Below are positions 5,963 to 6,532 of a stretch of 10,601 nt of DNA, in pieces. The DNA is taken from IMG/VR virus record IMGVR_UViG_2695420876_000011; one strand, 5' to 3'. The translations under genes were made by a program, and so were the position numbers. Numbering within the stretch: the first letter of the stretch is position 1; each line of letters starts with the position of its first letter. The stretch is from a virus. Taxonomy: Duplodnaviria > Heunggongvirae > Uroviricota > Caudoviricetes. A model generated the notes under the pieces. That model was given only the letters and a program-made list of their open reading frames with translations, did not search any database and had not been told where the DNA came from.

Positions 5963-6532
5963 ATGAACCAGTGCACACAGTGGTTGGGGTATCATGGCAC
6001 CAGTGTTTTATGTGCTAATTCAATCATTAATACAAATTTTAATGTCAGTAGACAAGAAAATGATTGGCTTGGTACCGGAGCCTATTTTTTCATTGAGTCG
6101 CCGGGATTGTTGGCCCCAGAAGAAAAAGCGGCTCAATGGGCTAACATTAGGGCTAGTAATGCGAGACCTAACTATACTAATCTAGCAGTGTTAGAAGCTA
6201 CCATTGAAGTTGAGCAGTATCTTGACTTAGACAATGATGAGCACATAGCCGCTCTCAACAAAGTGAGAGAGGTTTACATGGAAATCATGAAGTCTGAGGG
6301 TAAGAAACCAACTGGTAACAGATTGTTTGACAAATGCTGTTTTTGTAACTATGTAATGCATGAGCATGGTATTGACGCCCTGATACGTAAAGAGTATATC
6401 AAAACTACAAGAGAGGAGCTTGATTATGGTTTTGAAGGGGGAGTTCCTAACTGCAGAGTCTTATGCGTTAAAGACCCTAAAGCGAGTGTTAAGTCCATAC
6501 GATTCGCGGTCGAGAGAAGGATAGTACGATGA
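5963..6532 (+). CDS. Putative ADP-ribosyltransferase-fold protein (H-Y-E-class-like motifs), candidate toxin or effector of a three-gene module
   Basis: The 189-aa product has an N-terminal GYHGTSVLCANSII segment resembling the His-Gly-Ser/Thr NAD-binding strand of diphtheria toxin, exotoxin A, PARP and Tpt1-type enzymes (YHGT), followed about 30 residues later by G-x-Y-F-F (GTGAYFFIES) resembling the aromatic Y-x10-Y region. Acidic residues further downstream could supply the catalytic Glu. Its stop overlaps the next start (ATGA at 6529-6532). Confidence 0.5.
   Translation: MNQCTQWLGYHGTSVLCANSIINTNFNVSRQENDWLGTGAYFFIESPGLLAPEEKAAQWANIRASNARPNYTNLAVLEATIEVEQYLDLDNDEHIAALNKVREVYMEIMKSEGKKPTGNRLFDKCCFCNYVMHEHGIDALIRKEYIKTTREELDYGFEGGVPNCRVLCVKDPKASVKSIRFAVERRIVR

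Follow-up and report, generated by a model that had tools for sequence, protein, structure and literature searches.

The viral DNA considered here is a stretch of 10,601 nucleotides (hereafter, the window) from the Caudoviricetes record IMGVR_UViG_2695420876_000011 of IMG/VR, and on its plus strand three genes follow each other in the order toxin, antitoxin, SecB-like chaperone. The first of them (gene 1, 5963..6532, ATG start) encodes a protein of 189 residues, which we identify, with a probability of about 0.95, as CmdT, the ADP-ribosyltransferase (ART) toxin of the prophage-encoded anti-phage system CmdTAC of the Escherichia coli O112ab:H26 type; the identification draws on a match to WP_097333619.1, the predicted ART fold and residue conservation. 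The second gene, cmdA (6529..6894, plus strand), whose start overlaps the cmdT stop codon by 4 nucleotides (ATGA), encodes the antitoxin of 121 residues, 100% identical to WP_053886482.1. The third gene, cmdC (6896..7282, plus strand), with its ATG 1 nucleotide past the cmdA stop codon, encodes the 128-residue SecB-like chaperone of a toxin-antitoxin-chaperone (TAC) system, 100% identical to WP_053886483.1. All three open reading frames (ORFs) are intact, and the anatomy of the operon is that of CmdTAC, including an antitoxin tail that ends in Ala-Ala (the ClpXP degron).

Megablast comparison of the region 5700-7300 with 5,426 complete E. coli genomes retrieved two genomes at 99.9% identity. 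Gene 1 is identical to the gene of WP_097333619.1 (NZ_CP070071.1) at 569 of 570 nucleotides, and their products at 188 of 189 residues, the difference being I187 in the window and R187 in the reference (codon 6521-6523). Dataset S1 of Mets et al. (bioRxiv 10.1101/2024.02.24.581848; the peer-reviewed version, as cited in PMC11618068, is Cell Host Microbe 32:1059 (2024), doi 10.1016/j.chom.2024.05.003) lists 'CmdT toxin (WP_097333619.1)' as cloned from E. coli O112ab:H26. Because its product differs by one residue from the protein that Mets et al. named CmdT, gene 1 is an allele of an experimentally characterised gene; publications of 2024 had already described the protein, the partners and the mechanism, which leaves the present identification without value as a discovery.

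The partners of gene 1 conform to this identification. The C-terminal part of CmdA is rich in aromatic residues, and its last residues are ...LDHIAQAA, with Ala120-Ala121; the '120AA121/DD' mutant of Mets et al. fits exactly such a product, 121 residues long and ending in Ala-Ala. CmdA had no Pfam or PADLOC match, and the NCBIfam search yielded nothing for either gene 1 or gene 2, apart from a chance-level match of CmdA to glnS (E=0.086). CmdC was recognised by Pfam SecB (27.1 bits at a cut-off of 26, E 4e-6) and by the PADLOC model PD-T4-9_C (E 3.7e-35), PD-T4-9 being the system later renamed CmdTAC, a toxin-antitoxin-chaperone system with an ADP-ribosyltransferase toxin (PMC9519451; PMC11618068). 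In a mechanical list of ORFs cmdC is extended to a GTG at 6800, inside cmdA (6800-7282); ATG 6896 is the RefSeq start and yields a full-length PD-T4-9_C match. Toxin homologues with 38% and 43% identity occur in other prophages, and behind each of them stand a non-homologous small ORF (98 or 164 residues) and then a SecB-like gene. When CmdC was used as a tblastn query against phage genomes, two remote matches were all that was obtained.

The initial annotation of the window, made from the letters alone, had placed in gene 1 the motifs YHGT and G-x-Y-F typical of ADP-ribosyltransferases, and this placement was borne out on reading the translation: GYHGTSVLCANSIIN stands at residues 9-23 and TGAYFF at residues 38-43, with H11 (5993-5995) in GYHGT and Y41 (6083-6085) in GAYFF. 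The pattern [YFW]HG[TS]-x(15-45)-G-x-[YF]-[FYA] was matched by 5 of 200,000 composition-preserving shuffles of the gene 1 protein, and when the whole window was translated in six frames, the gene 1 site was the single match to the combined two-motif pattern. For the protein taken singly, the link in sequence to known ADP-ribosyltransferases is weak. Its match to Pfam PARP (PF00644), confined to residues 8-42, scores 11.7 bits at a threshold of 26.7 (E=0.18) and is thus below the gathering threshold, the same search returning also a spurious USP7_C2 match; a profile of 12 close homologues found exotoxin A among PDB sequences at E 0.4-1.6 (residues 6-41), amid unrelated matches (FGF7, Arkadia).

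The family as a whole speaks more clearly. A word-indexed search gave 13 homologues of gene 1, all unnamed, while 1,494 cluster representatives, almost always 180-200 residues in length, came out of an exhaustive profile search (E<=1e-3); 82 of these, 23-52% identical to the CmdT of the window, made up the conservation alignment. H11, G12, I21, G37 and Y41 are invariant across the 82 members, and T13, W35, G39, F42, F43, A56, W59, A60, D88 and N163 are conserved in at least 90% of them; the motif residues are under selection. Pfam PARP is matched by 38 of the 82 members at E<=0.1 (best 3e-6), and the family profile retrieves PARP10, 14 and 15 from the PDB at a borderline significant E of 0.004-0.01 over the His-to-Tyr segment. 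The predicted structure has an ART fold with the His on strand 1 and the Tyr on strand 2; the initial annotation had named fold prediction as a possible refutation of its ART idea, and the prediction came out in support. Foldseek matches to GNAT acetyltransferases (probability <=0.12, TM-score about 0.18) were dismissed as noise. None of the PDB chains is more than 17% identical to CmdT, and therefore no structure of CmdT has apparently been deposited. From PARP, diphtheria toxin and exotoxin A, with which it shares <=17% identity, CmdT differs in its lack of regulatory, translocation and receptor-binding domains; the RNA acceptor and a helical insertion (about residues 92-135) also set it apart from the PARP/diphtheria toxin group.

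As to the third catalytic residue, which in the H-Y-[E/D/Q] clade is an acidic or amide residue where the fifth core strand starts, the glutamates proposed in the initial annotation (E82, E84, E134, E151, E152) are all correctly positioned in gene 1; E82, E84 and E134 turned out not to be conserved, E152 (6416-6418) is still a candidate, and E144 (6392-6394) had been absent from the list. All 12 close homologues have E144, the last residue of strand 139-144, within R-K-E-Y-I-K, and its EYI motif can be likened to V-E148-Y-I-N of diphtheria toxin and N-E988-Y-I-V of PARP1. In the wider family this column holds mostly L, F or V, after N or D, and the resulting consensus N-phi-Y-I-K recalls the H-Y-phi mono-ARTs PARP10, 14 and 15. 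The E152 column, with E, Q or D in 61 of the 82 members, belongs to an [E/Q/D]-R motif that lies 8 residues past the E144 column and is more widely conserved; the 'HY-[E,D,Q]' logo of Vassallo et al. (PMC11618068) may refer to this column. Search of the PDB with the C-terminal sub-profile (residues 126-189), by which the E144 'EYI' analogy was probed, found no ART. Either E144 or E152 could be the third catalytic residue of CmdT, E144 being put forward here by analogy.

According to Mets et al., CmdT of WP_097333619.1 is an NAD+-dependent, sequence-specific mRNA ADP-ribosyltransferase, and the CmdTAC system is carried on a prophage. E. coli is poisoned by CmdT together with CmdA, and CmdC rescues the cells only partly; the toxicity of CmdTA needs ClpX and ClpP and is lost with the CmdA 120AA121/DD substitution. 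The operon defends against Tevenvirinae (Bas43, T4, T6) and against the Demerecviridae phage Bas34. In vivo CmdT specifically inhibits translation, not replication or transcription, and it blocks cell-free protein synthesis in the PURE system only in the presence of NAD+, the label from biotin-NAD being found on mRNA (RNase A-sensitive), with no specific protein signal detected. A 24-nucleotide RNA was modified by CmdT, while DNA of the same sequence, the reverse complement and homopolymers were not. Our own analysis contributes the sequence identity, the operon anatomy, the ART fold, the conservation of His and Tyr and the SecB-like chaperone; the NAD+-dependent block of translation, the labelling of RNA, the dependence on ClpXP and Ala-Ala and the phage defence come from the literature on the one-residue-different protein. 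On that literature, the target of CmdT is mRNA and its control is exerted by the chaperone-addicted antitoxin CmdA. The reading of gene 1 as a cytoplasmic NAD-dependent toxin with an ART fold is supported; of the three substrates originally considered for it, the published labelling points to RNA and speaks against DNA and protein.

In the CmdTAC system of strain ECOR22, the newly made phage capsid protein (Gp23) competes for CmdC, and the toxin has a GA/N6-adenine specificity (PMC11618068). We located a system of the ECOR22 type in E. coli N2250 (NZ_CP189474.1) by blastn with the Y41A primer from the supplement of PMC11618068; megablast with the same primer gave no match. This cmdTAC occupies 3905-5118 of the retrieved locus (1,214 bp, a length equal to that of the ECOR22 coordinates), its products match PD-T4-9_A, _B and _C at 4e-97, 3e-38 and 7e-61, and the N-terminus MIVQVVHI fits primer CV111. 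The N2250 genes belong to a P2-like prophage and sit in its hypervariable region, flanked by a DinI-like gene and the portal gene. By our count, the Tyr of the published 'Y41A' is residue 43 in the translated N2250 ORF; residue 1 of the published numbering may lie two codons further on.

Comparison of the family profile with the ECOR22-type CmdT gave an hhalign probability of 94% (E 1.3e-7, 110 columns), in a register that places H11 of the window on the ECOR22 His, and Y41 on the Tyr whose substitution by Ala abolishes the ECOR22 defence (PMC11618068). Fifty matches of the two PADLOC PD-T4-9_A (CmdT) models, 29 for one model and 21 for the other, were recorded against the 82 family members, and the two CmdC proteins are 33% identical (E 3e-20). 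The ECOR22 system shares with that of the window the three-gene order, an ART toxin of about 190 residues with the His and the Tyr, an antitoxin ending in Ala-Ala and a prophage location; dependence on ClpP, defence against T-even phages and the mRNA target are common to the O112ab:H26 and ECOR22 systems. The two differ in their position: a P2-like prophage harbours the ECOR22 genes in its hypervariable region, and those of the window adjoin the integrase of a different prophage. What the window carries is a divergent CmdTAC subtype, itself already characterised by Mets et al.

Several observations weigh against the identification of gene 1 or limit its consequences. PADLOC-DB v2.0.0 matches the toxin only at E 0.007 (PD-T4-9_A) and the antitoxin not at all, the chaperone alone being recognised. 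A direct BLASTP comparison of CmdT from the window with the ECOR22-type CmdT is non-significant (E 0.016 over 13 residues), and the antitoxins, of 121 residues in the window and 77 in the ECOR22 type, are unrelated, although both end in Ala-Ala. The Foldseek search of the PDB with the first structural model was weak as well, the best match being NatT (3.5e-3), with exotoxin A at 0.018. Finally, I187, replacing R187, falls in the last beta-strand of CmdT, and the published experiments were made with the R187 protein. Because the pairwise similarity of the toxins is non-significant and the antitoxins are unrelated, the details known from ECOR22 only (GA/N6-adenine specificity, the Gp23 trigger) may fail to transfer to the subtype of the window. 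The O112ab:H26-type clade might even be chemically distinct from ECOR22, with a different RNA acceptor atom or motif, or a different phage trigger; we think of this as unlikely, though by no means negligible, and raise it because of the PARP1/diphtheria-toxin-like E144-Y-I motif (H-Y-E), at whose Glu column most of the family is hydrophobic, the kinship with ECOR22 at the level of profiles only and the unrelated antitoxin. The oligonucleotide modified in the work of Mets et al. contains one GA and its reverse complement none, a count which is consistent with the GA/N6-adenine specificity of the ECOR22 enzyme but is not proof of it.

The following course of events can be proposed. CmdT, a small ADP-ribosyltransferase of the cytoplasm, belongs to the H-Y-[E/D/Q] (PARP/diphtheria-toxin) clade and, with NAD+, ADP-ribosylates single-stranded mRNA in a sequence-dependent manner and thereby shuts down translation. 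In uninfected cells CmdA should neutralise CmdT, provided that the aggregation-prone C-terminal chaperone-addiction tail of CmdA is held by the SecB-like tetramer CmdC. Infection would draw CmdC off CmdA, leading to degradation of CmdA by ClpXP via the C-terminal Ala-Ala degron, and the freed CmdT would modify mRNA and abort the infection. For the O112ab:H26 subtype we infer the trigger, the GA/N6-adenine specificity and the choice of E144 or E152 as the third catalytic residue. Stabilisation of the antitoxin by a SecB-like chaperone via a chaperone-addiction tail is also known from other TAC systems (HigBA1-SecB-TA of M. tuberculosis, HigBAC and MqsRAC of E. coli), and in such systems the chaperone can be an object of competition from phage structural proteins (Mets et al., bioRxiv 10.1101/2024.02.24.581848). 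The toxins of these systems, however, are RNases (HigB, MqsR), whereas CmdT is an ADP-ribosyltransferase.

Other activities could be imagined for a protein with such motifs. A DarT-like toxin that blocks replication by ADP-ribosylating single-stranded DNA would belong to the same ART superfamily, would likewise be the toxin of a toxin-antitoxin pair, modify a nucleic-acid base and play a role in phage defence. Yet DarT ranked far below the PARP and diphtheria-toxin relatives in the structure comparison, the list of 25 Pfam families matched by the 82 members includes no DarT family, and cmdA, the partner gene, has no match to a DarG-like macrodomain, nor to any Pfam family; with the DNA oligonucleotide left unmodified and translation rather than replication or transcription inhibited by the one-residue-different CmdT, such an activity is hardly conceivable. 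With neither a DarT-family match nor an adjacent DarG macrodomain antitoxin, identity with DarT itself was rejected, as was identity with Tpt1/KptA, for which no match to PTS_2-RNA (PF01885) was obtained. No better are the chances of a protein-targeting toxin of the diphtheria toxin/exotoxin A type, acting, e.g., on an elongation factor: in the PURE system biotin-NAD labelled mRNA and no protein, and Pfam Exotox-A_cataly is touched by just 2 of the 82 members (E 0.03). Killing by depletion of NAD+, through an NADase or NAD+ phosphorylase activity like that of the RES-domain toxins MbcT and NatT, seems only marginally less far-fetched, since biotin-ADP-ribose moves to RNA, the block is seen in reconstituted translation which needs no NAD+ (Mets et al.), and the conserved residues are the His-Tyr pair of the PARP/diphtheria-toxin enzymes.

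It could also be supposed that the cmdT copy of the window is a decayed or inactive allele, which has kept the motifs while the system no longer works. The substitution I187 is indeed non-conservative with respect to the characterised protein, and degraded fragments of an IS5-family transposase lie directly upstream. On the other hand, position 187 is variable among the homologues (R/K/N) and the I187 allele was found on 6 contigs, so the substitution is probably neutral. The IS remnant is present also in the genome with the reference allele, the three ORFs are intact with their overlapping and abutting starts, and CmdA and CmdC are 100% identical to those of the functional system. We consider decay very improbable, although less so than any of the other activities discussed above, and keep to the view that gene 1 is cmdT of the O112ab:H26 type.

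Downstream of cmdTAC, on the minus strand, lies the tyrosine integrase gene of the prophage that carries the system (7309..8478; Pfam Arm-DNA-bind_2 and Phage_integrase), its product identical to WP_053886484.1. Positions 4838-10601 of the window are colinear, at 99.3% identity, with the FDAARGOS_1287 locus and contain IS5-family remnants, cmdTAC, the tyrosine integrase and prophage genes of the YfdQ/YfdR type; the O112ab:H26 CmdTAC has the same CmdA and CmdC (100%) and the same adjacent integrase and prophage genes, and the window differs by I187. The fragmented IS5-family (DDE) transposase ORFs (4941-5392, minus strand), a frameshifted pseudogene in the matching RefSeq genome, mark the left limit of the colinearity (about 4838). 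Beyond them FDAARGOS_1287 has the end of a P2-like prophage, whereas the window has genes for a tail-fibre C-terminus, two NleG effectors, a WxxxE (IpaB/EvcA family) effector and a DinI-like protein, and this part has the look of an adjacent prophage's end, with effector genes on board. By its position, cmdTAC is cargo between the integrase and the prophage end, in agreement with the placing of the system on a prophage by Mets et al.; no tRNA gene was found at the prophage junction.

Upstream of the operon, a candidate sigma-70-like promoter (5880..5908, plus strand; TTGAAA-17 nucleotides-TATTAT, 10/12) is situated 55 nucleotides before the cmdT ATG, within the 118 bp upstream region cloned with the operon by Mets et al. 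(bioRxiv 10.1101/2024.02.24.581848); it is recognised solely by its match to the consensus, and such sites are no more frequent in the region than expected from shuffling. Terminator-like matches were all inside coding sequence and were not used. The type III effector genes are at 646-1125 (plus strand) and 2393-3043 (minus), both of the NleG family (Pfam T3SS_NleG, E about 1e-46), and at 3226-3816 (plus), the IpaB/EvcA-family effector with its W-x-x-x-E motif (DEWIKDE); these genes suggest an attaching/effacing E. coli host. The two NleG genes are separated by a region of low G+C content (about 0.30-0.37) with an ORF of 352 residues (1256-2314, minus strand), which had no Pfam match at E<=0.001 and may encode an uncharacterised effector.

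In the annotation of NZ_CP070071.1, WP_097333619.1 and WP_053886482.1 are each a 'hypothetical protein' and WP_053886483.1 is a 'protein-export chaperone SecB'; 'hypothetical protein' is also the name given to CmdT and CmdA of the O112ab:H26 subtype in every public record. Since PADLOC-DB v2.0.0 sees only the chaperone, automated defence annotation will miss this CmdTAC subtype. As the case of gene 1 demonstrates, a motif-level reading of the raw sequence can correctly identify a remote ADP-ribosyltransferase.
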